Of a stretch of DNA of 64,000 nucleotides, positions 1 through 25,477 are shown in pieces. This stretch comes from Psammoneis japonica (lineage: Eukaryota). Made by a program: the position numbers and the translations under genes. The DNA is taken from the NCBI GenBank assembly GCA_008632985.1, contig QPGO01000156.1:62001-126000 (forward strand), in the 5' to 3' direction. Positions within the stretch are counted from its first letter, which is position 1. The number at the start of each line of letters is the position of its first letter. The notes under the pieces are model-generated. The model was not told the DNA's origin, did not search any database, and saw nothing but the letters and a program-made list of their open reading frames with translations.

Positions 1-3000
1 ATTTTGATGACATGGAACATTTTGCCAATGGTTTTGGAATGGAGTTGTTTGGTCCCAAGCTCAAAAGCACAATTTCAATGCTTGCATCCAAAAAGCAGTT
101 TTTGGAGACAACAAATTGGTCCCCCTCTCCAGAATTCCTTGTTCTTCCCTTCCTTTGTCACAAGCCAAAGTTGCGTTGCATTCCACATGTCACAGAAGTC
201 ATCCACACCAACAACATTGTCAGGAAAACTCTTGGATGCCCTGACATTTGGTCTTGCATCATGACCAGTGGTTGGTCCATGAAGAAATCCGACGTGCTGA
301 AAGGTGAATGTGTTCTTCAACATTAAAATTTGGAGGAAGCTCTCCATTTCTCCAAACTGCCCGGAGAGACAGCAAAAAAAGAGGATTGTCACGTGCAACT
401 TTGCTGCAAGATCAAAGCAATGGCAGAACTTGTTTGTGTGATCATCACCGGCGATGACCCAAATGATCCTGTCTCTGGCAAGCCTTGTTTCCATTTTTTT
501 ATGGTGCAAAAGTCTCCAAGAGATGATCAATGACCAAGCACATGACCTTCACGGTGCATGCGTTGTCATTGAAATTGTCATGTGTTGCATCGAGTGCAAA
601 TCAAAGGACATGGACTGTTGGTTCATGCAGATTTTTCACCGTGTCAATGCCCAAAAGGAGTGGCACATGTTCGTCAACAGCTTTCTTGTCACATGTGATT
701 CCAATGGTCCATGTTCCCAGGAGGATGAGATCAAGGGGTTCCTTAGAGACAAACTTGGTGACATTGAGAACTCTGTGACAATGGCAGGTGACTCCCTTGC
801 TCATTGGGAGGTGCACGAAGAAAAAATCAGTTCCATGTTGAATCATGAATTTGGGAAGGGCTGTCCTGTGAGGAGCAACCTGGCACATGACCCAGGCACA
901 GCAAGCAGCTCACAATGCTTCAGCTAAAATTCAGAAGCATTGGGAGGAGCATCACATGTTGAGTGTTAAGACAGAGGTTTGAAATTTTTGCAATGGCAGT
1001 TTTCCTCTGATGGCTGTTGCACAACACAATCACAAAATCTGCAAAGCAGTCACAACAACACATTGAGACAAGTGCAATGGCAAAAAGGAAGACAGCAAAG
1101 GACAGGATGATGGCAGAGGCATCACCAAACAGCCCCAGGCTAACAGCAGCATTGCAGCAGGTGGGTGCAGCAGGAGATCACCAATCTCTGAAGAGAGAGG
1201 TGGAAGAGGTGGCACGGAGAGAGCCATTCCCAAAAGAGCGAAGTTCTTTGTGAAGGCGGACATGGCAAGTGGTGGCAAGGTGTCAAGGCCAGTGCAGAAA
1301 AACACGGCCAATGGCAAGTTCAGCAAGCATGAATGGGCAGGGTCATGGGAGGACTGGGTGAAGAAATGTGTGCTCAATGCAGTCAATGCAAAAAAGAAAC
1401 ACCGTGTGTCAGACGATGATGAAGAGTGTGATGAGCGGCAAGTGCTGTGGGGTGCATTTCCAAAATGGGACTGGGTGTGGTGCTGCTGACAAGATTCTCA
1501 TTTTGCTGCAGTCATGATGACAGAAGAACAAGCCAAGGAAATCCGTGGGATGAAGAAATTGACAAAGAAAGCAAAAAGTGCAAAGAAGTGCAAAAAGCCC
1601 CCTGCGGACCATGAAGAACAGTTCCTGGCAACTTGGGAGGATGAGGCAGCAGACACCATTGTGTTTGAGAAGTGGACAAACAAGGAGGCACACACATGGC
1701 TCTACAACAACATTCTAAAATTCATGGAGAGCACTGCAATGTGGAGAAGGATGGTGGAGTCTGGCAGCACCAAGGCTGCAGATCCAGCTGTGGCAAGTGA
1801 TGAGGCACTGGCGCTGTTGATGTTGGAAAACTGCTGGAAGGTTTGGGAGCACAAGACCGTGCAGGAAAGAAAGGATGAAGGGAGCAAAGAGGAGGAGGGG
1901 GAAACAAAACCAGCGCCCTTGCACACAGACCTGATGCAACAGCATGACTCTTGGAATGACAAAGGAATGCAGCAATTCAATGCCCTGCTTGGGGAGGCAA
2001 AGGAGGACAGGGCAAGTGAGCCGGGTGTGCATTTCAACACATGGTGCAACAACAGAAAAAAAGGGAGAGCAAAGGTGAAGGAAAAAAGGGCAGAACCAAC
2101 AAAAAACCAGTGGAGATGGAGATGAGAACACAAACAACAACAGAACTTTATGGTGATGATGAGGAGGATGATGACAAATCAGACAAACCTGGTGGCAGGA
2201 AAGATGAGGAGGAAGACAAAGAGAGCAAAGAAAGCAGTGACGAAGGCAAACAAGGAACAACTCCAGTGCAGGCCAGTTTAAAATGCAATGTGGCTGACAC
2301 CACAGCATTGGCTTGGTGTTCATTGACAAAACATGTGAAAAAGCAAAAGCAACAGTTCAGCCCAAATTCATTGCACATGTCATGTCACATGTGAAAATCA
2401 ACATGTGATGTGAGACAAACAAGTGACATTGATTGTCAGCTTCCACAGTGAAGGAATGCATGCGCACAGGTTGCCAGCCACACAACTGACAAGGTTTGAA
2501 ACTGTGAAAACACCATCTGTAAAAGGAGTGAAAATCACTGTGAGAAAGGGGGTGTTTGTCACCACAATGCACGCTCTGATGGTTTCCTGCTGCTGCTGGT
2601 GTGATCATGAGATCTGACCCCCAACCCCCCCACCACACTGGTGGCACCACACACAAACATCAATGCCAAACAGCACCACATGGTGGCATGCCTCAAAAAC
2701 CTGCAATTTTTTGCTGGGGCTGGGCATGGCAATCAGTGGCAGGCTCTGGAATCTGGAATGTTGCGCTGCCAACAATCACACCCATGGCTGGCATCCAGAG
2801 TGACCAAGGGGGAGACATCACAAGGCTTTTGCCAATTCTGCATTTTCAACAGTGACTTGCCATTTGCAGAGCTGAAATGTGCAGCACTCAGTCTTTTGCA
2901 GCAAGGAGACACAAAGATGTGACATTGGATGGCACACAATTCTGTGTGTGAAGGCAGCAATTGGTCTTGTGGTGCTGCAGCTGCCACTTCTTGTGTTGCC

Positions 3001-4240
3001 ATTCTTGCAATGTGTTTTTGACACCAAACCAATGGCTGGCACAGAGAAAGTTTGGGCCAGAAAAGGACACCTGGGGCATGTGATGTGCTGTGAAAAAGGA
3101 CAACAGCACTCACAAATTGAAGAAGAGCAAGAAGAACAGCAGGCCAACAATGAAGTTGCTGGCTGGAGCAACACATTCATTGAATGAACTCTGGGACACT
3201 TGGCAATTTACAACAACCCACCCACCTGCATTGCTGATCCCATGGTCAAATCAAGAGCCAACAGCACAGATGGCATCACTGTCTGCATCCCCAACATCAA
3301 CACATGACCCTTGCTCCAACACCTGTTCTCCCAGTGCTGCTTGCTCTGTTGCACCTCCACGCCAACATGCCGTGGTGGTTGTGATCAGAGATGACAGTGC
3401 AGCACAGCTGGAGAGTCACATGTGACAGAAAATCAAGCCAGGACACAGTGGGAGCATGGTGTTAGAAGAGAGTTGGCAGAGGCATGGCATTTGGGAGAAA
3501 AATGGTGGGATTGGAGACATCAAGAGGGCAAGGAGTGCTGGGGCTTGGGGGGGGGAGGTGGAAAAGCAGATTGTCAATGGTTGGTGAAATGCCATGCATG
3601 GCACAGCAGAAGGAGTGGGTGAGAGAGATGAGGAGAGGGGATGGCTGTGTTGGGGATGGTGATGTTGTGGTGGCTGGCCCATGCTGTGTTTTGAGGGAGA
3701 CTGGCTGCTGGGAGGCTGAGGAGTTGGGCAGTGACAGTTGGGAGGAAAGGCAAAGGGGGCATCATTGTGAGACAGAGAGGAAGCATTGAGAGTGTCAAAT
3801 GATTGCATTTGAAGGGAGAGGCCCAATGGAAGAGATCTGGCAGGTTGTTGCAGGGGGTGGATGTTGAAGTGGCAACGGCAGCGAGGAGGTGAGTGTGTTG
3901 GCATGGCATCTGCGGAGGGAATGGTGGCACATTCGTGTTTGCGGGGAGCAAGAGGAGAGTGCTTTGAGTTTGCTTGTCAACGAGGGTGGTGAGGCAGTGG
4001 AGAGCTTGGTCAAAAGAGAGTCGAAGGTGGAGGTGGAGCGGGTGGCAGCCGAGCGTCCGTCAGCAATCTTGCTTGAAAGAATGGAGCGTGACGTCATCAA
4101 ATTCTGAAGCAAGCCAAGATCCGCGAAGTTCTTCGCACGCAAACTGCAAGGTGAAGTGCCAATGAAGTGGTTCGTGGTTCGCGGTTCGCGGGTGCGATGT
4201 TGGATGTTTCAGATGCGTTTCTGAAGGTCATTGTGTTGTT
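1..4240. mobile_element. Degenerate TE-derived block, TpA- and CpG-depleted; family unresolved
   Basis: About 13 TpA in ~4.2 kb by manual count; Cys/His-rich spurious ORFs in all frames; contains the accessory ORF at 1514-2125, related to the one at 19177-19515. Confidence 0.7.
1514..2125 (+). pseudogene. Relic of a DNA-transposon accessory ORF (SDEAxALLxLEN...W / WxxxGxxxFNxL...DR type)
   Basis: Motifs ASDEALALLMLENCWKVWE and SWNDKGMQQFNALLGEAKEDR align by eye with TVSLEAFALLVCLNCC and GWSKEWIKKHNELCKWVKKDQ at 19177-19515. Confidence 0.55.
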
Positions 4241-4259
4241 GTTTACATAATATTCCACC

Positions 4260-7265: not shown

Positions 7266-7473
7266 GACAATTGGTAGATTTATGGAAGTTGTCTGAACGA
7301 GGCCTCTCCTCCAATACTACTCTGCTACTATATACCGGTAGCAAACCACCAGAACGGATCTGGCAATCTGCAGCCTTCACACAACGCTCTGGTGTTCCTC
7401 ATTACTATGTTCGAAAATTGAATGAGAAGGATGAAGTCTCGCCAGACTTTTGATGTTTAGGCTGACGAGCTTC

Positions 7474-7657
7474 TGAATAAATGCTGATATACTGTCACGA
7501 ATATAGGCAGTCCATATGCCATTGGCGATTGGTCCACTGTCGCTTATTTAGTGGCCCCAGCAGCGTAACATCTCACAATTCCAGAACCTGTTGATGCTGT
7601 TCAACACTCTGTCTTGTCTTACACCCAATTCTTAGCTATCATGGTAGCATTTATTCA
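7474..7657 (+). repeat. 5' LTR
   Basis: TG...CA ends; 12-bp terminal inverted repeat TGAATAAATGCT/AGCATTTATTCA; ungapped match to 13985-14168 with 18 transitions. Confidence 0.95.
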
Positions 7658-7670
7658 CTTTATCAGAGCC
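7658..7670 (+). other. Primer-binding-site-like sequence (tRNA-iMet type)
   Basis: CTTTATCAGAGCC directly after the LTR resembles the canonical copia TGGTATCAGAGC. Confidence 0.6.
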
Positions 7671-8203
7671 AACACGCTGTGATGTTCATTGCCTGGAACG
7701 GGCATCGCGAACGGTGCGACGGTGTCGTTGCGGTCGATCGATTTTTGCGGCAAGCACCATGTTGGTCCCATGGTTGCTCGCGCAATCGCTGAGTCCTTTA
7801 CATGTGTCAACATTCATGGATGTGAACGACATGCTCTTGGAGACCAGAGCTGTGATCCGTCAGACATGACGTTGGCAGACGGAATGTTTGATCAGGTGGA
7901 TGGAATGTGTTGGCCAAGGCATGCAAACATTCGCGACAATGATGAAATGATGATTTATGTGTTCAGGTCTGTCATTTGATCACATGCATTTCATTAATCT
8001 AAAAACGTTGTCAAATTGTTCAGACACTGTGCATGTTGATGCATGTCTGTTGGACATTGTTGCTTGGGAGTGACACCGCCTGCTCGCGGGTTCGCCAAGC
8101 AGAAACCGCCAAATCGGCACGAGAACCACACATTTTTCTCACTTTCCTCCACTCACACAAGTGGATGCTCACGCGTCGAAACGCGAACAACTGCTGATGC
8201 ACC

Positions 8204-11200
8204 ATGGCCGCTGCCGCAGCCTTTGCCGCCTGTCTCACGCGTTGTGGACACAATGCGCAGACGCGCGCCCACACAGCCCGCCAAGGCTTTGCTGCCATCG
8301 AGGACCTGGAACAGGTCCCTTTGATGGAAATTGCCGATGTGACTGAGGGCATCATGAAGAGCGTTGACACCACCGCCAACCCCCAAGTCCGCTTTCCACA
8401 CCTGGCGAATCGCAAGCTCAAGGCACTGCGCGCATGGATTGACCACCGCAGAGCCCAGAACCAAGAGCCGACCGCTGCTCTCTTCGCTGGCGACGTCATT
8501 GGAACATGGGCGGCACGTCTTGTGGAACCAGAGCAATTCAAGTCCGCGGACTCAGACGACAAATCGGCTGCCAAAACGGCCGTGGAGCTCAAGAACCCAC
8601 ATGACTGGCCTGCCTTCCAAGAGCCACTGGAGACCGAACTGCGTCACCACCGCAGTGCCGTTGCCGGAGTGCCCCCCATCTAACCAGTTGGGGAACATGA
8701 AGAGGTCACCGCCAAGATGTTGGCTGCCACCTGCACCACCATTGACGAGGACCTCATTGCCACTGCCCGCCTTGCAGGAGCTCAGTGTGCGCAGGACAGG
8801 CAACGCCTGCATGATCTCTTGAAGAAGCCAGTGATGGGGGGGCCTGGATGGGCTTTTGTCAAACCTTCCAATCGCAGTCGCGATGGTCACACTGCTTTCT
8901 TTGCACTCAAGAGGCAGGCAGAAGGATCGGCTGCCGCCACTGCCCGAAAGAACCGTGCTTGTGCACAGATTGCTGCTGCGAAGTGCACCGGATGGGGTCG
9001 ATTTACCTTTGACCAGTGCATTCAGCATCATCAAAAGGCTCACAACGACTTGTCTGAGCTTGATGAACTGGTGGCCGAGACCAAGAAGGTCTCTGACTTT
9101 CTGAAGGGCATCTCCGATCCCAGGTTGGAAACTGGCAAGAGCGCAGTGGATGGAGACCCGACGAAGCTAGCAGATTTCGAGGCATGCCAGCAGTGCATGA
9201 AAACTCTGGTCGAAAATGCCAAGAACCACAATGCTGACACTCGCGGGATCGCATCCATCCAATGCCGCAACAACCAGCGCAACAACCCTGGTGGAAAGCA
9301 CCAACCTAAGAAGGACAAGCCAGGATCCGGGCAGGCCATTGTCCCATTGAAGAGTGGAGTGCTCTTGACGGTCCCGAATGAGAGCAAGTCCAAAAGCTCC
9401 GCGATGCCAAGAAAGCTGAAAAGAAATGCAAAGCTGCTGCTGCATCCTCGGAGGCTGAGTCGGTCAATGCGAAACTCGCGCTGTCAAGAAAGCAGCTGTT
9501 GCCGAGCCTGCTTCTCAACCTGCTGATGAACCGAAAGACTCCGAAGAGCCTGACAAACCTGCCGCCAATGCAGGTGCCCAGTTCGGATGCAGTGCACATG
9601 AGAAACCTCAGAAAGAGGAATGAACAGTTGCGCCAGCACCAAAAGGCATGGAACCGAATGTCGCCAAACCTGCTGGCACCATTTGTTTGTCTGGGCGATT
9701 CTCAAAGGATGCACACATCTCTTTGTCATCTGCTGGGAATTCAGATGATGAAGCCACCACTGATTTGGACTCGCACGCTAACACGTGTGCTGTTGGGTCC
9801 AATTTTGTGATGCACTCTGACATCGACAGAACTGTCGTGGTACACCCTCACTCCGAAGAGCACGCACCAATGGAAAACATTCCCATTTGCACGGCTGCCA
9901 CCGTGTGGGTTGATCCAACTGATGGACAACCACACCCACCACCAGTCCACGAGGCTGTGTTTTTCGGGGACAAGATGACCAACACCCTCCCATGCCCCAA
10001 CCAACTGCGAGCGAATGGGCTGATTGTCCATGATGCCCCTCGCCAGTTTGATCCAACTGGCACACACTCCATCTCTTTTCCTGACTCGAAGATCAGGGTG
10101 CCATTGCGAATGCGAGGTGTTGCTTCAGTCTTTGATTCACACAAGCGACAAAGGAGGATCTGGAGAACCTCCCCCGGCTGGAACTGGCATCACCCCTGAG
10201 ATGGGAGCCTTCTGCTGATGCCCTGGCGCAAAAGGAGGAAGTGCGTGCATGTGCCAGTGTGCGCCAAGGATCAGCAAAGTCGGACGGACGGTCGACGATG
10301 ATGAATGCGACCAGGTGTGTCACTTCCATTCATTCATGCCAAACATCCTGTCATGACGAGAATGTCATCATGGATGCCAATGACGACGATTCTTTGTATC
10401 ACCGCCTGGTTGCTCAGGCAAATGTCTCCCACAACGACACTGAGGGAGACGGGCCACATGACCGGCATGACCCAGATATCCACCCAGATTGTGCCAAGTG
10501 GAAACGGGTGTGTGCACTGTCGACCTCGAGTCGTGCATCGACCATCACGCCCGAGACACTCTCTAAAAGGTGGAACATTGGCCTGACGGCCGCTAAGAAC
10601 ACCCTCAGAGTGACGACCCAGGCAGGGGTCCGTAATGTCCACACACCATCCGAACGGAAAGTCCGGAAGAAAGCCCCTTGGCTTGAGTTCCCTGCTGTCA
10701 AGGGACGCTTCTACTCCGACCAGATGTTTTCGAAGGTCAAATCGACACATGGTGAGACAGGAGGAAGCGCACTTGCCAACGGAAGAGGGTGTGACAGGTT
10801 CCATCCTTGGAAGAGGAAACAGGACCACCCGGATGCCGTCATGTCATTCACACATGACGTTGGCGCACCGCAGGTCCTTGTGTTGGATGGCGCACCAGAA
10901 ATGGCGGAAGGCCAGACCAAAGAGATCTGCAAGGAATGCAGGACACATCAGGAGGTGTCCACCCCGCACAGCCCCTGGCAGAACCCAGCCGAGGCATCCA
11001 TTCGTGAGTTGAAGAAAAGAGTCCGTGTGACTCTATGCTGGACTGGCGCTCACAGGCGACTTTGGTCCTACAGCACCAAATGGACATGTGACATCCGACG
11101 CATGATTGCGACTAGCATGTCGGACATGGGAGGACGAGTCCCAGAAGAGGAGGTGACAGGTTCGACACCCGACATCTCTTCCCTCTCTCTCTTTGATTGG

Positions 11201-13833
11201 CATCAACCTGTTTGTTGCTGCGTGCCTGTGGCGGAGTTCCCACACAAAAAGAAGTGCACAGGCCGTTGGCTCGGAGTAGCTGACAACTGCACTGACGACA
11301 TGGCATTCATCATTTTGCCCGAATCGGACAAACCCATCATTCGGAAGGATGCATGGGCTGTGCCGGAGGATGACCTTAAAACTCCAGCAATCCAGATGGA
11401 TCTTGCATCGGTCGATCAAGCTTTGATCGAACGGCTTAGCATCCCGGAAAAGGATGCCAGTGCTGACTTCCCTGAACTCCCTGACGACTTCATGGACGAA
11501 TGGGACGATGCCGTTGAACCCGTGGAACCCAATGCTTCCAAACCGGAAGCTGATGAGTGTGCCCCGGAAGGGCCAGATGAGCATCTCACAGCTCAAGTCA
11601 TGTTGCCACGAGGAGGCGAGCTGACTCATGCTAGGGTCATTGCACGCAAGCGAGGTGGCGACGGGGTTCCTGTTGGTGCTAGGAACGACAACCCTGTCCT
11701 AGACTCAAGGACATATGACGTGGAATTCCCTGATGGATCCACTGATTCCCACACTGCTGACGTCATTGCAGAGAACCTGTTCGCTCAGATCGACTCTGAA
11801 GGGAATGCCTGCCAGATCATGAAGGAGACAGTCGATCACCGACGTGATGCCCGTGCCGCAACGGCCGATGACGGGTGCATGACGACTGAGACTGGCAGGC
11901 GTGCTCCTAGGAGGACGACTGCAGGCTGGGACCTGCAAGTCAAATGGAAGGATGGGACTGCATCCTGGGTTCCTCTCAAGGATTTGAAGGAGTCCAATCC
12001 AGTCGAGGTTGCTGAGTGCGCTGCAGCGAACAAAGCAGCCAGTGAACCAGCCTTCAACTGGTGGGTCCGAGACGTCTTGCGTCGCAGATCAAGGATCCTG
12101 AAGAAAGTCAAGTCACGTCACTGGAAACGCACGCATGAGTTCGGAATTGAACTCCCAAAATCTGTCAAGGAAGCCATGGAAATAGATGACAGAATGGGGA
12201 CCGACTTCTGGTTCAAGGCCATTGAGAAGGAAATGCGCAACGTCATGCCTGCGCTCGAATTCCGCGATGACGACACTGTGCCGGTCGGGCACAAACATGT
12301 TGATTGTCACATGATTTTTGACATCAAGAGCACCCTCCAACGTAAAGCGAGGTTCGTGGCCGGAGGCCATCAAACCGATCCACCCAAGGAATCGACCCAT
12401 TCCAGCGTGGTGTCGCATGACAGCGTTGGGACAGCATTCACCACACAGCAGCTCTGAATGACCTGGAGGTCCTGAGCGCTGATGTTCAGAATGCCTGCTT
12501 GAATGCACACACTGAGGAAAAGTGTTGCACCACTGCTGGCCTGGAACTTGGGAAGCAGAGCAAGGGAAGGCTGGTGATCATTGTCCGTGCCTTGCATGGT
12601 CTCAAGTCTTCAGGTGCAAGATTTAGGGAACATGTGGCAGCTGCTCTGCGGGATGCTGGGTTCGAGTCTTGCAAGGCTGACCCGGATGTCTGGATGCAGG
12701 CTGCGGTTAAGCCGGATGGCTTCAAGTGCTGGGAACATGTGCTTGTCTATGTGGACGACTTGTTGTGCGTCTCCCATGATCCTCAGAAGGTCATGGATTG
12801 CATGAGCTCTGGGTGCACGCTCAAGGACGGAAGTGTCTGCGAACTGGAAGAGTGCTCAGGCGCCCAGATCAGAAAGTGCCAGCTGTCTGACTCGGACAGC
12901 AAGACACGCTGGGCTGTGTCCTCTGACCTTTGTGTCAAAAGGGCATCAGCTGACGTTGAATTAGAGCTTAAGAAAACTGATGGGCGTCTTCCGACGAAGG
13001 CGTCGACGCCCTTGAGCTTGGGATGCAGGCCTGAACTGGACGGTTCACCTGAGTTGAACGCCAAAACGGCTGACTGCCATCAAGGCCTCATTGGTGTGCT
13101 GTGGTGGGCAGTTGAACTGGGGTGAGTGGACATTTTTGTCGCTGTCTTGCTCATGTCCTCCTGCTTGGCAGCACCACGAGTTGGACACCTGGACGAGGTG
13201 CTCCATGTCTTTGCATGCTTGAAGGCTCGCTCTGTGTCTGCGCCAGTGTTCGACGACACTGAGCCCGTCTTTGACGAGAGTCACTTTGCCAAGTGTGATT
13301 GGGAAGAATGTCACCCTGGCGCGGCTGAACCAATGCCACCGAACATGCCAGAGGCACGCGGGAATGGCGTGGCTGCTGCTTGCTTTGTCGATGCTGATCA
13401 TGCCGGATGCCGTGTGACGCGCAGGTCCCACACTGGGATCCTGACATTTGTCCAACGAGCGCCCATCTTGCATTGCTCTAAGCAGCAGAATGCCGTAGAG
13501 TCCTCTGCTTTTGGGTCGGAGTTCGTGGCTATGAAGACTGCAGTGGAGCAAATCAAAGCCTTGCGTTGCAAGCTTCGGATGCTCGGAATCCCCATGGATG
13601 GGGCCACTGACGTTTTCTGTGACAATGAAGCTGTCTTCAAGAACTCAACTAAACCAGAGTCCACTTTGAAGAAGAAGCATAATGCAATTGCCTGTCACAG
13701 GACTCGTGAGGCACAAGCCGCTGGAACAGTGTGCATTGCTTGGGAAGATGGATGCACGAATCTAGCGGACGTGCTAACTGAGTTGTTGCCTGGACCGAAG
13801 CTCCGGGAAATCACAAGTCACATCCTGTGGTGA
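8204..13833 (+). pseudogene. Copia gag-pol polyprotein, disrupted
   Basis: Protease DLDSHANTCAVG; integrase PHSPWQNPAE; RT KARFVAGGH, ALHGLKSSGA, YVDDLL; RNase H DADHAG...RRSHTG, FCDN; stops or frameshifts at ~8681, ~10145, ~12445 and 13123 (CGA>TGA). Confidence 0.92.
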
Positions 13834-13971
13834 GTCCCAAAAGGGGACAAACCGAACAGGTTTGCCACGCAGGTGCGGCTTTTCCCACCCCCAAAACAAA
13901 AGCACCACCCTGGAACAGGGCAGCATCAGGTTGCACTTGTCTGTCGATCTGGCCCGAGCGGAGCCAGTGTC

Positions 13972-13984
13972 AGTTCAAGGGGAC
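13972..13984 (+). other. Polypurine tract
   Basis: AGTTCAAGGGGAC immediately before the 3' LTR. Confidence 0.65.
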
Positions 13985-14168
13985 TGAACAAATGCTGACA
14001 TGCTGTCACGAATGTAGGCAGTTCATGTGCTGTTGGCGATTGGTCCACTGTCGCTTGTTCAGTGGCCCCAGCAGCACAACATCTCACAATTCTAGAACCT
14101 GTTGATGCTGTTCAACACTCTGTCTTGTCTTGCACCCAATTCTCAGCTGTCATGGCAGCATTTGTTCA
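13985..14168 (+). repeat. 3' LTR
   Basis: Same length as the 5' LTR; TGAACAAATGCT...AGCATTTGTTCA. Confidence 0.95.
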
Positions 14169-15724
14169 CTTCAGAAATCAGCGGTTTCCTGCCTGTGTGC
14201 CTGCCTGCCATGCCGTGCCGTGCATCTGCCATGCCATGCAACCACAGGCTCAGTTGCAATGCAACAGCAGTTTGCAGAGCCATGACCTGCCACGGTGTGT
14301 GGCAGTTGCCATCTGCCATCTTTTCATGGCTGACATGAGAGGGAGACCTGAGCATCATCAATGCGCAGCAGCAGTGCTGTGCTTGATTTTCCTCATTCAA
14401 GGAGGCTGAAGGAGAGACTGAGCTCCTGAGACGTCACTGGCGCACACAACATTTCCTGGCTGGGAAAATGAGTGTCCTGCAACCCACCACACCTGGTGGC
14501 TGCCCAAGTTGTGGTCATTGCTTCAGTGGATGACAGGCACTGGGGCAGAAACACATGGCAGAAAAATGGCCAAAAAGCCACCTTGGTGGTTGTGTTCTGC
14601 ATTTTCTGAGTTGGACCCTGCCAAGCTGAGAGCACAGCATAAAAAAATGAGTTGTCACACACATGTGGACAAACTTTTTTTCACATTTAGCAGTGTTCTG
14701 TGGCATGTGTTTTGTTCAAGTTGGGTGGCAAGAAAGGAGAATGAGCTGAAAAAAGGTTGATGATCTTCCAGAGATGAAGTTTGCAAACATGGCCAAAGGG
14801 CAACAGAGCCGCCATCCTCTCTTTGGCACTCTGACCAACCTGGTGGAGACATTGTTGACTTCATGCCATCAGACAACTGCACAGAGGTTGAGTTGTGAAG
14901 AGCCAGCTTCTTCGTTGACATTGTGGTGGGTCTGAATGTGTGGCCCACACAGCCCGCATTTGCCAATGTCATGGCAACTCTTGGAGGACTGCTTGCTTGC
15001 AGGCAAGGAGTTGAGGCTTTGCCACACTGTTTGAGAGGGATTTTTTGACAAGTTTGCTGCTGACAAAGCCAAGTGCTGTGGTGGGTGTGTCAATTTCCAC
15101 GTGAAACTGATGGAAGGGCTTGATGTGCAGCATCCAAATGCTGTGAAAGTCACCAGTGGCAAGGCCACCTCTGCCAACTTGCACCAGTCAAGTGGCCAGC
15201 TCAAAACTCAGCCAATCATCACATCAATGTTTTGAAATGGGAGCTGCACAATCAAAAAATTGTTTCCCTGTCATGTTTGCAAAATGTTGGTTGCACAAGG
15301 CTGCAGCAGCAGAGCATCAAAACAACTGCAAAAACTGGGACATGTTTCTGCATGTCTGGGTGGACATCCTGGCAACATTGTGAACATGATGGCACTCAAG
15401 AATGTTCATGCCAGGAAAGAGATCCTGACTGCCAGAGCCTTCCCATGTTTTGCCACCATGGTGGTTGTGTCATGACAGAAAAAAATGTCTTTGTCCCCAC
15501 TGGAGATTCTTTCTCTTTACCTGAAAAACAACAATTTTTCTCATTCACCACATGGCAGCCCCGTGCAATGTTGGCAGCCTTCAGAGGCTCTGCGGCTGCA
15601 CATCCAGCACTTGGTGCATTCCTCACAGCATCATGACAGCCCCACAGAGTGCTTGATGTGCAGCATTGGCCTCTCACAAGGCTCTCAAATCTGCCAGCTG
15701 GTCTGTGCTGCACCGCCACATGTC

Positions 15725-18700
15725 CATCTGGGACACCAACAATCTGGGTGTTGCACCTGCCATCAAGAATTTTTGAATTGCAGCCAGGCAACTTCTCTGT
15801 TTAATCCAAGATTGTGCTGATTTGTCAAATCTACATTTGTGAAATGTTCAAGAACAAACATCTTCATTCCCAAAGTCAATGAATTTCTCTCCACTGCATG
15901 GAAAAAACTGCGGTGCAGTTTGTGCTCATGTTGAGTCCTGAATGAAGTGCAACCCACTTTCCCCAATTCAAAACTCTGCAGTCATGTGTGAGGTTAGATT
16001 CGTCTTTGCTTCAATTTTTTGGCTCCCTGTCCATGCCATTCTTTGTTTTTGTGCAATGCCCCCCATGTTGCTCTTCTTCATTTGCCCCCAGCTTGCAACC
16101 CTGCTTTTCACCATGTGATTGCTGTGCCACGTGATTGATGTTTGCCTTCAATGCATTCCTTCCATCACATTGTCATCTTGACATTTCTCCAACATGCTTC
16201 ATTGATGCAGTCTGATGGTCTTGTTTGTCCCTGGTGCAAATGTTCTGGGTTCAGTTCCAAGCATGATCTTAGTCAGAGCACATTGCTGCCCCAACTGTCT
16301 CCTTTTCATTGGTCTGACCAAGTCTTTCAGTTGTCTGTTGTGGACATTGTGGTTTTGACTCAGAAAACCAGGTGCAGTGTCTCCTTTCCCATCACTGCAC
16401 CACTTCCACTGTTCTCCCTTTGCCAAGAACATGGCAGCATTCAAGAACTGAAACATCCTCCCTGTCTGGTCAGACATTGTTGGTTTCTTTGCTTGCTTCC
16501 TTGGGATGCTGACTCTGTTGCCTCTCTTGGGTCCAATGCCAATGGACCAAAATGTCCCCATTGCCAAGTTCCCTTTTTCAACATTGCCCCGCACATCCAG
16601 AATTGTGCACCCTGCTGCGAGAAGAAGGAAGCATCCCTTTGATGCTCTGCTGCTGCTTCAAATGCTGTCAATTCATTTTTCCCTCCAGATGATGACACAT
16701 TTGGTGACAATGATGATGACTCCATGTTTGGTTTTGCTGATGACAAACCCCAGCCCCTCCCTGCCTAAAGTCCATTTGAACCCAGATCCACCTCCTCCTG
16801 CACACTCTGACAATGCTTCTCCTGTCAGCTCCCCCGTGTGCACCCACCCTGTCAAATGCTCTGGTTGCTTGCATGCCGCTGCCAATGCAGCCACTGTGAT
16901 TGATCACCGATTTGTCTCATTTGCCAATGATGGTGTGTCTGCCCTCAGAGAGGACAGTTCTGTGGATGTTTCCAAGACCATTGCAGCTGATTCTCGATGG
17001 CACTTTGGGCCCTCCCTTGATGTCATGTCCAGCAGAAGACACAGCGCTGCTCCTCTCCTGTCTGTGTTGACTCAGCTGCAGTTTCCTCATTTGATCCCAA
17101 AACTTCACTGGGGCTGGCATGCAACCTGCCCCTGATGAGAACTTTGATGTCCCTCCAGTCCACTCACCCAGCACTGTGCTCATAATTTGGCTGCTGCCTC
17201 TCTGTCTTTGGTCAGGTGTTGCAATTGACTTGATCAACAAAGTTGTGAGAATGGCCCATGAAGAGCATGCAGAGAAAAGATTGGATTTGCCACAAAACAT
17301 CACATCAAGTGCAATCACAATGGTTTCCCACAGACACTTGTTTGTCAACATCTCCTCCAGGCAATTCTGTGTTGTGTTGTTGATGAATGGCATCCATCCA
17401 TTGCAGCTGTTAAAAAAAATCTTTGTGTCAACTTCATGACAGCACAAACTGCGCACTGCATCATTTTTGTCAAGAAAGGACCTGTTGGTCAAAGTGGGGT
17501 GCCTTTCTGCTGTGTTGGGAAAAATGCCAGTGCACCACACACCACCCAGCTGGTGCCAAGGACAATGCAGCTCACAGCACTGTGGGCCTGACAGGTGGGA
17601 AAAAGCAGACAACAAGCAATCACCAAACCAGCACAACCACCACCAGCATCAATGAAACTGAAAATGCTGTTGGACCAACTGCCCAACATGCAGGGATGGG
17701 TGGCCCAAAACCTTGGCACCAAAGTCAAAATTCACTGTCTCTCCATGTGATTCAGCACCGCCACCAGCAACACAACCAAATTGATGCTCGATCTCAGGCA
17801 TGTGATGATGGCAGCAGAGGGAACATGCACTCCAGTGATTGTGGCAGTTCAATGCAACCAGCACATCCACTCAACACCCATGTCAATTTCAACAACATGA
17901 TGGGAAACAGATTGTGTGTGAGTTCATGGTGAAGCGGGCTGGTGAATTGTGTGTGAACACACATCATTTGGATTTGTGATGATTCCATTTGGGCAAGAAC
18001 AGTGAGACAGCAGTTGGAGATGCAAGCATTGCATTTTATGGGATGAATGAGATTGTGGTGCATTGGCAGCAGAGGAGGGCATCAGAAATGAGGAGGAAAC
18101 AACCAACTTGGTTGTCAACAAAATTTTACAAGAAAAGTTGCAGAATTTGCTTAAATCAATGCAGAGCACACACTGGCACATGTGAATGGCTTGCATTGGA
18201 GCACAATTTCAAAACAGTGAAAGGTTTTGAAAATTTCAAATGTCAAGTTAGAAATGTGCTCACAAATCTGACACAGAGACCTGTTTGAATGAATCTGGGA
18301 AAAGTGAGCAATTGCAAAACAGAGAAAATCACTTGCAAAGTGCACTCATTTCATGACTTCTCATGTCACAAACTAGACGGAACACAGAAAACAGTGCAAC
18401 ACAAGAGCTGCCTGTTGGAACAGGAAAAAAGATGGAGAAGACAGTTGCCACAGGAGTGACAATGCAAGATGGTGGGAGCATGATAATGTCATGTGGCACA
18501 AGTTGGGTTGAAGAGGGCAGGACAAAGAATGACAGTTGCACCAAACAAGTTGCAGCCGGCCATTTTGGCATGCTTTGCAGTTGCCATGAGTCCTGTGGCA
18601 GTGGGATTGCTCAATGCACAAACAAACGAGTGCAGGGAATTAAGCCAATTCCAGTTTGCAGGCAGGGACTCAAGTTCTGTTGTGACACCTGCGGAGGGAT

Positions 18701-20131
18701 GTCATGCAATGGATCAAGCTCCAGCAGTTGAGAGAAATTGGCAGGGTCCATGTTGATGAAGGTGGTCAATGAAAGTGTGCAGCCACATCACAAGTTCACA
18801 AACTTTGACAGAGAACTTGCAGTGGGAGGAGAGCACATGAAAATGGTTCTGCAGGAGTCAGGAGCATGGCATCTGCACCAGATGCATTCTCCGATGCATG
18901 CAAAGATGCAATCAGAAAAAACCTCAACCACAAAAGGAACAATGCACAGGACAACACAAGGAGGAGGATGACAGGTGAGCAACACAGTGCAGGCATTCAG
19001 CAGTTGTAGATGGGATTGTCTGACGGCCAAGTGTGAACTCCATTGTTTTCATCAATGCAGTTGCTGCTTTAGAGGGGTTCTTGCTGGATGAGTGTGAAGA
19101 CTTGAACAAGGGCAGGGGTGACAAAGACATGTGCACGTGGTTCTTGGAAATGGTGGTGCCAACTGTGGTGGGCTGAGTGCAGTTTGGCAGCAGAAGCACA
19201 ACCAATTTGCTGCAAGAGTGGCTCACTGTGTCATTGGAGGCCTTTGCTCTGCTGGTGTGCTTAAACTGCTGTGACAAGGTGGCTGACATGGCAGAAAAAT
19301 TGGAGAAGGATGACAACATTGCAAGGCACAGAAAGCTGATGGTGGAAGATGCTGCATCTGCAAAGTGCACGGTGATGGCAAAGGGGGAATCAGCTGAGAG
19401 GAACCAAGGATGGAGCAAGGAGTGGATCAAGAAGCACAATGAACTGTGCAAGTGGGTGAAGAAAGACCAAGAGGAGAATGAAGGATTTGGTGCATGGTTC
19501 AAGGAATGGAGGTGAGAGAAGGTGAACTTGTCCAAGGATGCAGAAAAGAAACACAAGAGAGAGAGAGAGAGGAGAAAAGGCAGGAGAGAGAGGATGGATG
19601 GGCCACGCCAATTGGAGAGGACCTGCCCTTGCAGCCAGTGGCTGCTGGCAATGACACAGAAGCAATTGCGTCCATGTGGCAAAAAACCAAACTGGTGCGT
19701 GAATGTAAATTGCAGCAAACAACAAAATCCAGAACACAGCAAAAACAAAGAGGCAAACTGCAAGGCAATTGTTGGTCAAGAAAAAATGGCAGTTGCAACA
19801 TTTGCTTTTAAAACAAGAACAGTGCAAAGAGACAAAATGCACAAGGATGTTGCAGGCAAAGATGGTGGATCACATGTGGCAAGAGTTGTGATGAAGGAAT
19901 GAGGAACAGCAAATGTCAGAAAGGGTTGAGATTAAAATTGTGGGCAGGAACATTCACACTTCAAAGTGGGGCACAAATTCAAATCAAGAAGCTCACAAAC
20001 TCAATTGGTTCTGAATGCACTGACATTGCAAGGAAGACTTGGCTCTCAAGCTCACAACATTCTGGGATTGCAGTCGAGAAACACCCAGATTTTGACAGGT
20101 GGTCAGACCCAGATTGTTGGTGTCCCAGATG
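15725..20131 (+). mobile_element. Degenerate TIR DNA transposon (~4.4 kb), possibly CMC/EnSpm-Plavaka-like
   Basis: 25-bp perfect inverted repeats CATCTGGGACACCAACAATCTGGGT at 15725-15749 and 20107-20131; TC on both outer sides (possible 2-bp TSD); CPWC zinc-finger-like remnant near 16230; accessory ORF at 19177-19515. Superfamily is inferred. Confidence 0.65.
19177..19515 (+). pseudogene. Transposon accessory ORF remnant, related to 1514-2125
   Basis: TVSLEAFALLVCLN...KCT...GWSKEWIKKHNELCKWVKKD. Confidence 0.55.
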
Positions 20132-20199
20132 TCCATCAAGAAGACTTCAACAAAGTGAACCACAGATGCTCTCAAATTCAAAAGGCATGTTGATGCAAG

Positions 20200-23100
20200 G
20201 CAAACAATGGTGGTGACAGCAACATCATTGTCAACATTTGATGACAGCACAGTTTTTGCCAGCATCTGGCAGCCTTGAGGCCAGCATTTGACTTGAAAAA
20301 CATTGTTGTTGTGTGCAGTGCACTTGCACATCCATTGGAGGCTGTGGCCCACAGCTCTGCTGCCAAACCCACTGTGTGAGCCAGCAGTTGGATGCAATTG
20401 ATGATGTTTTGTCCAGTGCATATGGCACATTGTGGAGAAGGGGGGGGGGGGGGGGGGCACTCCAATTGACAACATTGCAGCCAGCAAATGGAAGCTTGTT
20501 GCGGAGCCACCAACATCCAGCCAGCTGCAATGCCACCAACCACTTGGCACATTGTGTTTTTGAGTGACATTCTCTGGGCACCTGAGCAGAGGCAAGGAGC
20601 TGGCATTTGCTTGTGATTGAACCTTCAACTTCTGCTTTGCTTGCAGACATCAAGAAATGGCTGACAATGCCTGGCTTGTTCACTCCCACCAGTCTCTTCA
20701 GCATTGAGTTGTGGGCAAACCAGCTCATTGCCAGCTTTGGATGGTCCCTTGCTGAGCATGCCCAAAGTCAGCAGTCTCCAGCCTGGGCAGATCAGGCAGC
20801 AGACAGGTTCAAAAGCCATCTGACTGCAACAAGTTGACACCAAGCAGTGTCTCTGAGGAGCCATTGGTTGTCCCAGCTTTTCTGAAGGTTTCAAGGCTGC
20901 AGAGTTTCAGAGTTTCTTGGTTTGGGTGGTGAATGGCATGGAGGCAAGGGTTGCTGCACAGCCTTGATCCACTTGCCAAACTCTGTGATGCTGTGCATGG
21001 CTGCTTGGTGCAAAAATTTCATGCCCAGGTTCTCAAGTTTCTTGGTGGTCACAAACCTGAGCATCATTGATGTTGTGTGCCCATGTGTCAACACAGGTGT
21101 CCAGAGTTGCCAGGGGCACCAGCTGAGCTTCAGCCCTGCAAAGCCCTTCTTTTAGACAGACTGGGGTGAAGAAAGCTTTGTCAATGTCAGGGGCAGTGGC
21201 AGAGACTCAGGAGCAATGACACAGCTGCTGCTGCTGGTGGTGGCAGATCTTGAGCCACAGGTGCAGCTCAGTGGTCATTGGTTGTTTCAAAATGAACATC
21301 AGGTGCAGGAGGGTTGAAGGCAGTCCAGACATGATTGCTCATGCCTGTTCCATGTCTTTTGACCAGCCAAGGAACAGGGTCCAGGATGCAGACTGGACAA
21401 CATTCCCACTCTGGTGTGCACACATCACAAAAGCAATTCTGGGCAAGGCTGACCCAACAACAATGTCCACATGGGGGAATGCCCTTCCTTGCACACTTGG
21501 TGTCATCTCAAAAAAGTGAGTGCAAGGCATGAGGAAACACCACCACAGGCAACAGGCATGTGCGCCAACATCACTCTTGCCATGTTGGAGACCAAATTGA
21601 TGCTGTGTTCAGCTGCCCCATTCTGATGGTGAGCATTTGTGCCACAGAACTGGCTGGAAGCATTGCTCTTGTTGTCATGCTGTGTGTTCTTGCACAGCAG
21701 CTCTGGCCTTGAAAGTGCCACCATCCACCACACAAAAAATTGTGAGACAATGCTGTGGTCAAGCAGATGTTTCCCAAACATGCGTGTTTGGCTCTGATGG
21801 CTTCCACAGCCAAACACCAAGTTGGCACCCAATGTGGAGACACCCAGAGGCATGTCCCACAAAAAACCTCATTTGATCTGCTGGGTGGGGAGCTTTGCTT
21901 CAGGAGTTGTGGGCACACCTGAGAAGATGGGCTCAAAGCTGACAGCCTGACCAGAGCAGAGATGGTTGGCTTTCAGAGCTCCACCTTGCTCAGGGGCTGT
22001 GGAGTGCCAGGCAGAGCTGAGGGAACAGAGATGGCCTTTTGCATGCTCGCCTGCACATTGAATTTGGGTGGCAGGAAGGAGTCAGCACAGATCAAGCCTT
22101 GGATGAATGCAAGTGCAGATGATGACCAAAACACAAGTGTGCCACTCCAAAACAAGCTTTTTCCCAGTGGCAAGGTTTTGATTGTTTTTGTTGAGTGCTG
22201 CAGGATTTCAACTTGGAAAGTGGGCTCAACACCATGTGAGATGGCATCAGCAACCATGCTTGCTGTGCACAACATGCTCCCCCCCCCCCCAACCAAACAG
22301 CAGCTGGGGTGTTGGGAGATGTTTCCCAGCTTTGTTGGGAATGTGGTGTGTGCACAGCTTTGACAACAAGCATGAAGCCTCCTGTTGGTGCATTGTGGAA
22401 CACTCAGGAGTTTGGGGGGTTCCCAGACCAGCAACAGCCAAGCCATTTGTCATGCCACCAAGCTTGAGGGGCTTTTCAAGGACCATTGCTGCAGGTCCTG
22501 TGAAGTCACCCACATGTCACCAGCAAAAACTGGCAAGGCTCCAGTGTTGCATGTGACCACAAGGCAGTCATGTGCAAGACTCAACAAGCTTTGAAGGTCA
22601 GCAGCAAAGATGCTCAAGTGGGTGTTGCCAAACAGTGCCTGTGCAGAGGCGAGGCTTGGATGCACAGCAGTCACATCTGCAGCCTCTTGAAGGGGCTTTT
22701 CAGGATCTTGCCAGGTGGCAGGAGTGTGTCAACAAAGTCAAGGTTGACAGACAACTCATTGAAACAAAAACAGTCTGGTGGCACTGTCTCTTTGATGAAC
22801 TCAAAGCAGCAGTTTGGACTTGCTTGCAAGGCAATGACAGACCAGTGGCAAGTCTTTTCTGAATTACAGGCATGTTGGTCAAGAAGTTAAAATCTTCAAG
22901 AATGGCTGAGCTGCAACGACATGCATGCTGACAGCATTCAGCATCCCAGGGTGGCCAGAGCTTCTCACTGAGGCAGTGGTGGTCAGGATTGTGCAGCAAG
23001 CACTTGTTGCCCTTGACCTTGTTGCACCATGCAAACTGCCACAATCTGGCTCAATCATGTCATCCAACTGTTCCACAGTCAAGAAGACTTGGGAGCTTGC

Positions 23101-24450
23101 ATGTGCCAGCCAGCTGGCTGGACAAATGGCAGGTGGTGGGTGTCCAGACCATGGCAGCACTGGACAAGACCACTCACATGGATGGAAGGCTGGGCGTGGT
23201 TGGGATGACAGCTTTGTGGCACATGCAATGGGGAGTGGGTGGAGCAGTGCAAAACAAATGCATGGAGCCATTTCTCAGAACTCCAGAAAGCAGCAAGGCA
23301 GAAGCCTGAAGTTTCTGTGTCCATTTGACACTTGACACTCAACAAAAGTTTGGGTTTCAGGGACACAAGCTCACAACAATGACAGTGGATGACGCTTCTT
23401 GGAGGCAAGAAGCTTTTTTCAGAACCTTAAGAAGCCACATCTCTTGCTGCAGCCGCAAGACATGAAAGACATCTGGGTGCTTAATTTCATGTGCAGAGTG
23501 CAGGCCAAAAACAACTCAATGGCTTGTGCCTCAGTGTCAAAAGTTGAAAGAGCATCAGAGAAAGTGGAATTTGTTTTTCTGGACCAGACATCTCTGCCAG
23601 GACAGGAGGCATGGGTTTGACCATGACAGCTGCCCTCTTGATGGCTGACACAGCAGGACTGAAAGTGACAGAAGTGTCCACAGGGGCAGCAACCAAAGAC
23701 TCTTTAACAGGAACACACACCACATGACACAGAAAAGACACTCATCAGGGTTTGAAGCCCTTTGCTGTGGGAGGCCAAAGGGAACACATGAAACATGATC
23801 AGCAAAGTGGTGCAGAGAGGCTGGCACCAAAGCCCCAGAATTAGACTTGGAAGGTTGTTTGCCTTGTCAATGTGCTTGATTTGCACCATTTCCAGACTGT
23901 GCCAGCCCCTTTTGCTGTTGGTGTGAGCATCACAAACATTGACAAAATGCCCAGCAGGCTTGGAAGGTTCAGCTTGTGTGTCAGCAGCTTGGGTGGTCTT
24001 CCTCTGGTCTGCTTTGCACACTGTTTCTTGTGTGCAGGAGAAGTGAGGAGCTTCGTGCAGCCAGCTGCACCCCAACCATGAAGATGCTGCTTGGTGATGC
24101 CAAAGCTCTTGTGAGAGCAAAACCCAGCTGAGGCAGTTTTGATGCCAAGGTGGGGCAATTCTCATTGCCAATGAGCTTGCCATGGGTTTCTTTTGGCAAC
24201 AAGGCCAACGGCACCACCAGGACTGAGATCTGAGCAGTCAGAACACTTGGGGATGACCTCAGCTGGGTTGGATGTCACTTCCCTTCCAACTGCTTGACAA
24301 GGTCCAACTTGAGATAAAAGTCTGGTGGCTCTTAAAGAAGAGCTCAGAGGATGCTTTGGACACCTTGGGTGAAATGGCAGAGCCTGTCTCAGATGGCAGC
24401 ACATGATCCATCTGTGCACAATGTTGGCTGGATGCAGAGCTTTGGTTGTG
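20200..24450 (-). mobile_element. Second, heavily decayed Ty1/copia relic; boundaries approximate
   Basis: Minus-strand remnants in copia order: protease-like NTGA...GDFTGP...LGGMTNGLAVAGLG (~22400-22560), GAG-pre-integrase KLVLEWH..FGH (~22120-22170), integrase FCGTNAHHQNGAAE...VSNMARVML (~21570-21650). Confidence 0.7.
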
Positions 24451-24728
24451 AGCTCTGTGCAGTTCAGGGTCGCTGTCACAACTCCACAAAACGGACACAA
24501 AACAGATTCATTTTAGTTGCCCAAAATGAGATCATGAGATGCGATTTGCTGGGGTCTTTTTAAAATAAAATGGCTCAATGGACTGCCGAAAACATGCACT
24601 GCATTGGCCTTTTACGCATTTGTGTGCTCCATCCACACAAAACTGCACACCACAACTCTTGTCAGCAATCCACAACCAAACCACCATGTGTTGTCACAAC
24701 CCAACAACGAGTTTTCAGCCACCATGCA

Positions 24729-25477
24729 ATGCCACAGAACGTTTTGTTGCTTAACATGGCTCCGTGCATTTCCGCACCAAACATCGAGTGTTTCCAAGGT
24801 GCACTGGATGCTTGTTGTTGTTGGAAACCAGACGAGGAACTGCATCCATTCTGGAAAGCCAAACTGATCAAGGGAGACTGCATGTGTTGCTGTCGGCATC
24901 AGAAAAAGTGGGAAAGAAATCTAGAAAGTCGTTGGTGTGTTTGGTCATGTTGGCACAGAGCGACATCAATTCCAAACGCAATGCTTGAAAAACTGCAAAA
25001 GATGACTGTGGCTGTGGTGTCTTGGCCATCCACATGCGACGCTCGGCAGAGGTCGCCATCCATTTTCACTTCTCGCACAATGCACCGCAGTGTTTTGCTG
25101 TCCAACAAAAATGTTGACGACTGGACTGCACTGCTTCTCTGGGTGCGATGTTCCATCACAGTCGTTCCCGTAATCTGAACTGAGTCTTCACGCCTTCTTC
25201 TCACAAGGCTGGGGATGGGTTTTGGCATCGGCAGAAACACATCGCTAAGGCCTTGACGTAATGGTGAGATGCATCGTCATCCGGCATTTGGCAACACACC
25301 GACACCACGGATGTGCGGTGGTTGTCGTAAGGCCGATGTGGCATTGCAGAAGCCTTTGGAGAAATGCACATGGTGCAGGCGTTATTCTGCTGTTCCAAAC
25401 AATGCCATCGTCAGGATTGGAAGAAGCACAAGGAGCACTGTGCTCTATCAAGAAAGAAGAAATGCAATGGTACCTGA
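24729..25477 (+). pseudogene. Host MYND-finger gene eroded by TpA loss
   Basis: C-terminal CGGC...KCTWCR..(frameshift)FCCSKQCHRQDWKKHKEHC; upstream ACCCWKP and DCMCCCRH runs; TpA-poor but CpG retained. Confidence 0.6.

Follow-up and report, generated by a model that had tools for sequence, protein, structure and literature searches.

The closest described counterpart of the DNA considered here comes from the chlorarachniophyte Bigelowiella natans. According to the main text of a 2026 preprint, mutation-accumulation lines of this alga acquired 231 new mutations within two integrated viral regions, of which 230 were A>G or T>C changes, all at TpA, that arose episodically at about 1000 times the background rate; TpA-poor coding sequences of B. 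natans are enriched for reverse transcriptase (RT) and DDE domains, and the authors propose an ADAT2-like DNA adenine deaminase (bioRxiv 10.64898/2026.01.13.699255). Here we analyze 64,000 nucleotides (nt) of the diatom Psammoneis japonica (GenBank assembly GCA_008632985.1, contig QPGO01000156.1, positions 62,001 to 126,000 of the forward strand; hereafter the window, numbered from its first letter), which hold a repeat island with a dead copy of a Ty1/copia long terminal repeat (LTR) retrotransposon at 7474–14173. Judged from its sequence, the element is CoDi-like, a label taken from an earlier reading of the window (hereafter the original prediction) and not from a phylogeny. About four in five TpA steps of the element have been rewritten to TpG or CpA, and we consider it rather likely, if by no means certain, that the island records TpA-specific A:T>G:C hypermutation of silenced repeats at the DNA level, of the B. 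natans kind but in a diatom. Within the literature covered, the B. natans preprint is the one published precedent that we found for this pattern.

As the B. natans changes are described in the main text of that preprint, they share with those reported here the restriction of A:T>G:C to TpA, the yield of both TpG and CpA, and the location in foreign or silent regions with normal DNA alongside (bioRxiv 10.64898/2026.01.13.699255). The two cases differ in the host, a rhizarian there and a stramenopile here, and in the target, which here is an LTR retrotransposon together with a whole repeat island. The loss is nearly saturated in the diatom, with observed/expected ratios (o/e) for TpA of 0.05–0.13 against 0.45 in the giant-virus region of B. 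natans; most of the diatom island is CpG-depleted as well, and the process is known here from its footprint, whereas its rate was measured there. Repeat-induced point mutation (RIP) of Neurospora and other fungi likewise wrecks repeated or foreign DNA by dense, context-specific transitions and spares genes. RIP changes C to T at CpA, with a rise in TpA and AT content and the creation of stop codons; at the diatom locus, by contrast, TpA is destroyed, CpA and TpG are in excess, GC is raised, TAA and TAG vanish, and the RIP signature is absent. The C>T changes of RIP fall in sequences of high homology (bioRxiv 10.64898/2026.01.13.699255, main text). Hypermutation by APOBEC3 or ADAR also leaves clustered transitions in retroelements, and in the sources covered ADAR/ADAT-type editing favours a U before the edited A; those enzymes work on cDNA or RNA in the course of replication, with strand asymmetry, whereas here both strands and non-retroelement neighbours are hit, and A>G/T>C changes predominate on the two strands alike rather than the strand-asymmetric G>A/C>T of APOBEC. 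Decay of 5-methylcytosine (5mC) by deamination similarly turns a palindromic pyrimidine-purine step into TpG and CpA in silenced repeats, and such CpG decay is seen at 1–3875 and 14174–24470, but such decay affects CpG, not TpA, and in the copia element far more TpA than CpG has been lost. Finally, 5-hydroxymethyluracil (5hmU) of dinoflagellates lies preferentially in TA and TC, is enriched on repeats and transposons and overlaps 5mC; the parts of that study covered report no mutational footprint of the base (PMC11572971). A comparable lesion in the diatom would likewise sit on the T of TpA in silent DNA, although TpC is not visibly affected here. Our literature search, which took in parts of the CoDi paper (PMC2806351) and of a 2025 diatom transposon preprint, returned no report of TpA-specific hypermutation in diatoms.

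Over 7663–14173, the o/e values are 0.13 for TpA, 1.69 for TpG and 1.37 for CpA, with ApT at 1.01 and CpG at 0.70. Eighty related copia loci from metagenomes have a TpA o/e of 0.74±0.11 (minimum 0.48), with TpG at 1.21 and CpA at 1.12; the pattern used to fetch them requires an intact YVDD, and fully recoded copies would escape it. In the interior of the element (7663–13984), 41 TpA remain where about 239 are expected. The loss extends over two domains that reach well beyond the element:

7663..25170, no strand: TpA-depleted domain, consisting of the copia interior and 3' LTR, a decayed block (14174–24470) and a fringe (24471–25170)
1..4243, no strand: second TpA-depleted domain, running off the window; TpA o/e 0.05, CpG o/e 0.23

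In the block at 14174–24470, o/e is 0.05 for TpA and 0.08 for CpG, and the longest TpA-free run measures 1712 nt (21153–22865), as compared with a mean TpA spacing of 25 nt in host DNA. The loss is regionally confined: host DNA has a TpA o/e of 0.40–0.98 per kb window, the host genes at 4244–7473 and beyond 25171 are normal, and normal host genes lie 200 nt to 1 kb from TpA-free blocks, and three depleted blocks adjoin normal host genes. The flanking blocks are unrelated to copia and encode no recognizable protein, a Pfam scan of 31 of their open reading frames (ORFs) having given sub-threshold chance scores and no credible match, yet they are equally TpA-free. Most of their length is also CpG-depleted (o/e 0.08–0.23), whereas copia keeps its CpG (0.70). 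The GC content is 54.5% in the element, about 47–48% in host DNA and about 49% in the flanking blocks.

The sequence at 14174–24470 and 1–3875 is complex and non-repetitive, with TpG and CpA near 1.8–1.9, and probably consists of very old decayed repeats driven toward a TG/CA-only composition. At the outer fringes, 3876–4243 (368 nt) has no TpA and a CpG o/e of 1.05, and 24471–25170 has six TpA (o/e 0.12) and a CpG o/e of 0.65. As the fringes are poor in TpA but normal in CpG, the zone of TpA loss reaches 370–700 nt past the zone of CpG loss. Measured against the baseline of its relatives, the copia element retains about 18% of its TpA and about 80% of its CpG (CpG o/e 0.70 vs 0.87), which suggests that TpA decays roughly eight times faster.

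The original prediction had concerned the pol gene, where it described a systematic recoding of conserved Tyr residues to Cys or His that fixed the direction of change. The nine motifs on which it drew are present at 12005–13710, with TGC/TGT or CAT/CAC in place of Tyr codons and GCC/GCT, following a T, in place of Thr codons. The intact forms, which the prediction had based on copia consensus sequences, do occur in relatives (ALYGLK, DVQNAYLNA or DIQNAYLNA, KYWEYVLCYVDD, HIFAYLK or HVFAYLK, AIAYHRTRE, EVAEYAVAN, KSRYWK, ESTYSSVV and NTVESSTFGSE), as read in ten of 73 homologues (metagenomic, 28–57% identical). In DVQNACLNA the change of Tyr to Cys holds, but the supposed change of Ile to Val does not, Val being present in intact relatives as well (DVQNAYLNA); in NAVESSAFGSE, Thr>Ala is accounted for by a TpA that spans the codon boundary. 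When the three pol pieces of the window were aligned with 39 relatives of at least 1000 amino acids (aa), and columns with at least 70% agreement among these were taken as conserved, Tyr was kept in only three of 22 conserved Tyr columns (11 Cys, seven His, one Phe), as compared with 337 of 380 columns for other conserved residues (Fisher p=2.9e-14). The pol translation (1355 aa in three frames) contains 0.37% Tyr against 3.64±0.53% (minimum 2.23) in the 73 relatives, 3.69% Cys against 1.34% and 4.06% His against 2.75%. Single TA>TG or TA>CA steps, which the prediction had proposed, explain 33 of the 62 departures in conserved columns (21 TA>TG and 12 TA>CA); the others are five CG>TG/CA changes, seven other transitions, 10 transversions and seven multi-step changes. 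A variant genetic code is not the cause, since Tyr makes up 3.0% of the 3667 aa encoded by ten host ORFs. In the RT of the window, YVDD retains its Tyr.

The prediction had also opposed inactivation by missense here to inactivation by nonsense in RIP. The loss of TpA indeed makes no stop codon, and TAA/TAG amount to 6.9 per kb here, while host DNA has 34.2 per kb; inactivation is not by missense alone, however, since pol also carries two frameshifts and an in-frame TGA at 13123 (see below). Likewise, the recoding of pol is real, but the effect belongs to the whole repeat island and not to pol or to Tyr as such; Tyr is the residue worst hit because every Tyr codon is TAY, which matches the favoured target T-A-Y (see below).

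The two LTRs provide a second view of the direction of change:

7474..7662, + strand: 5' LTR (TG...TA), TpA-rich, with 15 TpA and an o/e of 0.96 (LTR match, TpA list)
13985..14173, + strand: 3' LTR, TpA-poor, with two TpA (LTR match, TpA list)

Each is 189 nt long and the pair is 90% identical, the match of 188 nt to 13984–14171 having 90.4% identity. They differ at 18 of 188 positions, of which 16 have TA in one and TG or CA in the other, one is of the CpG type and one is another C/T difference. The 5' LTR keeps 15 of the 17 TpA inferred for the ancestral LTR, the 3' LTR two of 17; one site, with CA in one LTR and TG in the other, requires a TA ancestor. The mass balance, with both strands pooled, shows a loss of 43.3 TAN and a gain of 21.4 TGN per 1000 trinucleotides, the gain being half the loss, as would be expected were each lost TpA to yield one TpG on one strand. 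Conserved Tyr columns, LTR comparison and mass balance agree that the change ran from TA to TG or CA, as the original prediction had held. Both strands are hit: TA>TG outnumbers TA>CA by 21 to 12 in codons, and the LTRs have eight of each. Sense-strand gains of TG exceed those of CA about 1.7-fold, against 1.15 predicted from context, a difference within the spread of relatives. A transcription-coupled model, in which the U3 of the 5' LTR and the U5 of the 3' LTR would be spared, was considered and rejected: all 15 TpA of the 5' LTR survive, up to the final base of the repeat, and the 3' LTR is hit right to its end.

The decay bears no mark of selection. Of the conserved Tyr codons three of 22 (14%) survive, of the LTR TpA two of 17 and of TpA overall 41 of about 239 (17%), and residues that are invariant in 39 of 39 relatives (Lys, Arg, Ile and the Tyr of ALYGLK) have been altered.

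The surviving TpA steps reveal a flanking-base rule. In the three depleted blocks, 54 of 90 survivors lie in YTAR (TTAA, CTAA/TTAG, CTAG) and five in RTAY, as compared with shares of 16.7% and 29.5%, respectively, among the TpA of host DNA (chi-square p=8e-28). At polarized mixed sites (YTAY or RTAR), 17 changes fit the rule that the mutated A is followed by a pyrimidine and five do not (p=0.017). Together, the contexts of survivors and mixed sites indicate T-A-Y as the target, and arithmetic on the survivor counts under a two-rate model gives an approximately 4.5-fold preference. In sequence data, T-A-Y with A>G and R-T-A with T>C on the other strand are the same pattern and cannot be told apart. 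In the parts of the B. natans preprint covered, we found no such preference for T-A-Y or resistance of YTAR (bioRxiv 10.64898/2026.01.13.699255).

If hypermutation at the DNA level is the explanation, the DNA of the island would have passed through a context-specific process that turns TpA into TpG or CpA by A:T>G:C change on either strand of the palindromic step, fastest where the target A precedes a pyrimidine (T-A-Y, equivalent to R-T-A as T>C on the other strand). Such a process would convert Tyr codons (TAY) to Cys (TGY) or His (CAY), would give Thr>Ala, Ile>Val/Thr, Lys>Glu and Asn>Asp at TpA steps that span codon boundaries, and would remove TAA and TAG without creating any stop codon. 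It presumably acts on the chromosomal DNA of silenced repeats after integration, as in the mutation-accumulation lines of B. natans, may be linked to chromatin and would rely on enzymatic modification of one base of the TpA step. A TadA/ADAT-like adenine deaminase acting on DNA would be the leading candidate: the A targeted by tRNA A34 deaminases is, as far as is known, always preceded by T, and the natural site of TadA is UAC. A TET/JBP-type thymine oxidase with a mispairing product would be a second candidate, as further oxidation products of 5hmU mispair with G. Ordinary deamination of 5mC would strip CpG from the same island more slowly.

The remaining parts of the element are as follows:

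7661..7670, + strand: sequence resembling a primer-binding site (PBS), TATCAGAGCC, directly after the 5' LTR (read from the sequence)
8717..9526, + strand: ORF in gag position (assigned by position; no Pfam family and no homology found)
9762..10145, + strand: protease region, frame 3 (tblastn with the relatives P0007, P0009 and P0011, 43–52% identity, E 1e-25 to 1e-35)
10148..12454, + strand: integrase and N-terminal part of RT, frame 2, with a frameshift on each side (tblastn with four relatives, 47–51% identity, E=0)
12448..13830, + strand: C-terminal part of RT and RNase H, frame 1 (tblastn, 56–64% identity, E=0)
13123..13125, + strand: in-frame TGA at a codon that specifies Arg in 38 of 39 relatives (CGA>TGA, a CpG-type change)
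13977..13983, + strand: polypurine tract AAGGGGA before the 3' LTR (read from the sequence)

The three collinear tblastn pieces, at 43–64% identity to full-length relatives bearing PF07727, give the pol order protease, integrase, RT, RNase H; of the paired LTRs with TG..CA ends, PBS and polypurine tract expected of a copia element, LTRs at 90% identity, a PBS-like site and AAGGGGA were found, and TATCAGAGCC resembles what we take to be the tRNA-iMet primer site of such elements. The middle piece carries EVAECAAAN, KSRHWK and ESTHSSVV and the last piece the other six of the nine motifs. The RT of the window scores 16.2 bits against Pfam RVT_2, below the cut-off of 31.6. By tblastn, the two frameshifts lie near 10146 and 12448. 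A 5-bp target-site duplication is absent from the LTR flanks (GCTTC vs GAAAT), which could reflect a recombinant, a rearranged copy or an assembly join, and self-BLAST of the window returned the LTR pair and host paralogues, with no further copy of the element. TpA content changes in a step at the LTR/PBS junction, from 15 in the 189-nt 5' LTR to three in the next 338 nt (o/e 0.14). A host RING/MYND-TPR gene starts 209 nt from the 5' LTR on the other strand; a chromatin boundary at the 5' LTR is possible but unproven.

The family to which the element belongs was followed in a public DNA sequencing run (X1), which contains 56% of the 31-mers of the stretch and may be its source sample. No RNA run was listed for the stretch, and two further runs, X2 and X3, yielded no contig placed on it. 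At an identity of at least 90%, 5949 contigs of X1 match the stretch, and 1203 of these reach at least 99%. Summed word depth over the family is about 1800–12000, against 29–55 on long unique contigs, which points to a family of tens to a few hundred copies; the depths of the unique contigs also indicate accurate reads. Among the contigs, 236 places vary at a share of at least 10%, and 224 of these are transitions. For the best 40 of the 236 (at least 71% of family depth differing from the copy in the window), the family has CG at 22 where this copy has TG or CA, indicating many private CpG losses in this copy, and has TA at no more than three where this copy has CA. To judge from these 40 places, most of the family does not have TA at sites that were once TpA. 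One contig joins a mutated-type LTR to the PBS region. Some copies, accounting for part of the depth, are continuous in frame, with insertions at 10145/10147 and a 2-nt deletion at 12442. Two contigs (depth 145) join 10630 to 12787 and skip 2156 nt, which suggests that internally deleted derivatives of the family are present in more than one copy.

Similar recoding recurs in environmental relatives. In 120 short RT relatives from public protein sets, Tyr averages 4.8±1.0%, with two outliers, both metagenomic, from other projects and known here as proteins, their DNA being absent from the 80 related copia loci. P0235 has 0% Tyr, keeps none of nine conserved Tyr (four His, three Cys and two Phe) and reads CVDD for YVDD; P0210 keeps three of 10 (four Cys, three His). 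Six comparator RT fragments keep 8–11 of 10–12 conserved Tyr. Against RVT_2, P0210 scores 55 bits and the intact P0001 59.9 bits, while P0235 has no Pfam match. A search of viral contigs with P0235 and the RT of the window found no relatives.

Other explanations have to be weighed against hypermutation of chromosomal DNA. A host deaminase could have edited the RNA or cDNA of the element at UA/TA, in the manner of ADAR or APOBEC, over many cycles of retrotransposition before integration. A retroelement with tens to a few hundred copies would be a suitable target, much of the mutated state may be common to the copies, a sense-strand excess of A>G is possible (21 vs 12; TG o/e 1.69 vs CA 1.37), and, in the parts of the literature covered, fungal and animal A-to-I editing prefers U at −1 (PMC11156358; bioRxiv 10.64898/2026.01.13.699255). 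Yet the unrelated flanking blocks and the CpG-keeping outer fringes are equally depleted, the changes fall on both strands, 16 TA-type differences separate the two LTR copies, and a near-saturated loss that changed residues invariant in 39 of 39 relatives would be unaffordable for a lineage that still replicates. Moreover, the 3' neighbour preferred here is a pyrimidine, whereas ADAR prefers G, and we regard editing before integration as unlikely. It is also improbable, in our view, that the loss is a state of the lineage, with TpA steps removed in a single event, or gradually while an active lineage was under selection against UpA/TpA, before the Cys/His version was amplified. Such a history would agree with a family majority that is not TA-retaining (at most three of the best 40 of 236 places), with the copies that are continuous in frame at both frameshift sites and with the retention of the YVDD Tyr. 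It sits poorly with conserved Tyr codons surviving no better (14%) than TpA overall (17%) or in the LTR (2/17), with radical changes at residues invariant in 39 of 39 relatives, with the same loss in unrelated neighbouring DNA, with the independent fragment P0235, which lacks even the YVDD Tyr, and with the existence of a TA-rich LTR version of the family.

A general drift of base composition, or gene conversion among repeats with a GC bias, would fit the net AT>GC change and the higher GC content of the element (54.5% vs about 47–48% in the host), but we consider it very improbable: the change is confined to TpA, with ApT at 1.01, A:T>G:C outside TpA accounts for five of 62 departures against 33 of 62 at TpA, 16 of 18 LTR differences are TA-type, and the flanking blocks have about 49% GC. 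Equally hard to credit is an artefact, either through modified TpA and CpG bases of heterochromatin miscalled by a long-read basecaller or through a polishing mosaic. Both palindromic pyrimidine-purine steps do converge on TG/CA in the older blocks, and assembly could account for the step at the LTR junction and for the lack of a target-site duplication. X1, however, has 56% of the 31-mers exactly and 1203 contigs at least 99% alike, with depths of 29–55, and, although it may be the same sample, reads so accurate would probably not miscall; in copia, TpA is lost and CpG kept, so that the two effects are separable, and gene-called proteins from other projects show the same recoding.

Several points weigh against hypermutation of chromosomal DNA, the explanation that we favour. 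The evidence is a footprint, not an observed process or rate. The LTR pair polarizes the change, but a single shared insertion cannot be assumed, so that the LTRs do not prove a post-integration timing; the 5' LTR, with no target-site duplication, may have been derived from a different copy or joined on in assembly, and recombination between copies or an assembly join would explain the exact step at the LTR/PBS junction as well as a chromatin boundary would. The sense-strand TG excess is within noise, yet would fit some transcript-linked bias. Lastly, the mutated state may be shared between copies: 236 places vary, as against an expectation of about 400 had some 200 lost sites been resolved independently from copy to copy, a comparison that is not decisive because the X1 contigs drop rare variants.

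Elsewhere in the window, the neighbouring host gene for MsrA shares 75% identity with its counterparts in Fistulifera solaris and Epithemia and 73% with that in Seminavis, a similarity that placed the host among raphid pennate diatoms; exact look-ups of ten host ORF translations gave no match. A tandem array at 54437–60425 comprises four paralogous genes of 306–309 aa; the two that were scanned match the ricin-B lectin domain (E 4e-21 and 1e-15), and the three compared by self-BLAST have 72–80% DNA identity. ORFs at 25645–26157 and 27149–27751 (minus strand) form a paralogous pair, 77% identical over 384 nt, and a Pfam scan of the ORF at 25648–26157 found no family. At 43891–44243, a 176-nt tandem duplication, 93% identical, lies inside a minus-strand ORF of 684 aa.

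The findings bear on annotation as well as on biology. Fifty-three ORFs of at least 60 aa, on both strands, overlap 9000–16000; long false ORFs arise there because TAA and TAG are nearly absent, and gene callers would over-predict in TpA-depleted regions. Recoded elements also escape domain searches, as seen with the sub-threshold RT of the window and with P0235, which lacks a Pfam match, so that the transposon content of diatoms may be under-annotated, and dating by LTR divergence would be badly inflated. Beyond what is described for B. natans, the present locus adds near-saturation over a repeat island, a co-occurring slower CpG decay with TpA lost at a rate well above it, and the T-A-Y/R-T-A rule, which narrows the search for the enzyme; a natural enzyme for A:T to G:C change in DNA would interest base-editing research. 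More speculatively, and at somewhat less than even probability, diatoms, and with Bigelowiella perhaps much of the stramenopile, alveolate and rhizarian (SAR) group, may possess a chromatin-directed, base-modifying defence that marks and erases the TpA of silenced transposons and viral inserts, a mirror image of fungal RIP; its enzyme would be a double-stranded DNA adenine deaminase (T-A-Y) or a thymine oxidase (R-T-A), and together with 5mC decay it would drive old repeats to a TG/CA-only composition. If the explanation favoured here is true, a mutational genome defence found in print once, in a chlorarachniophyte, also operates in diatoms, a major group of phytoplankton, and would be a candidate for an old and widespread system.

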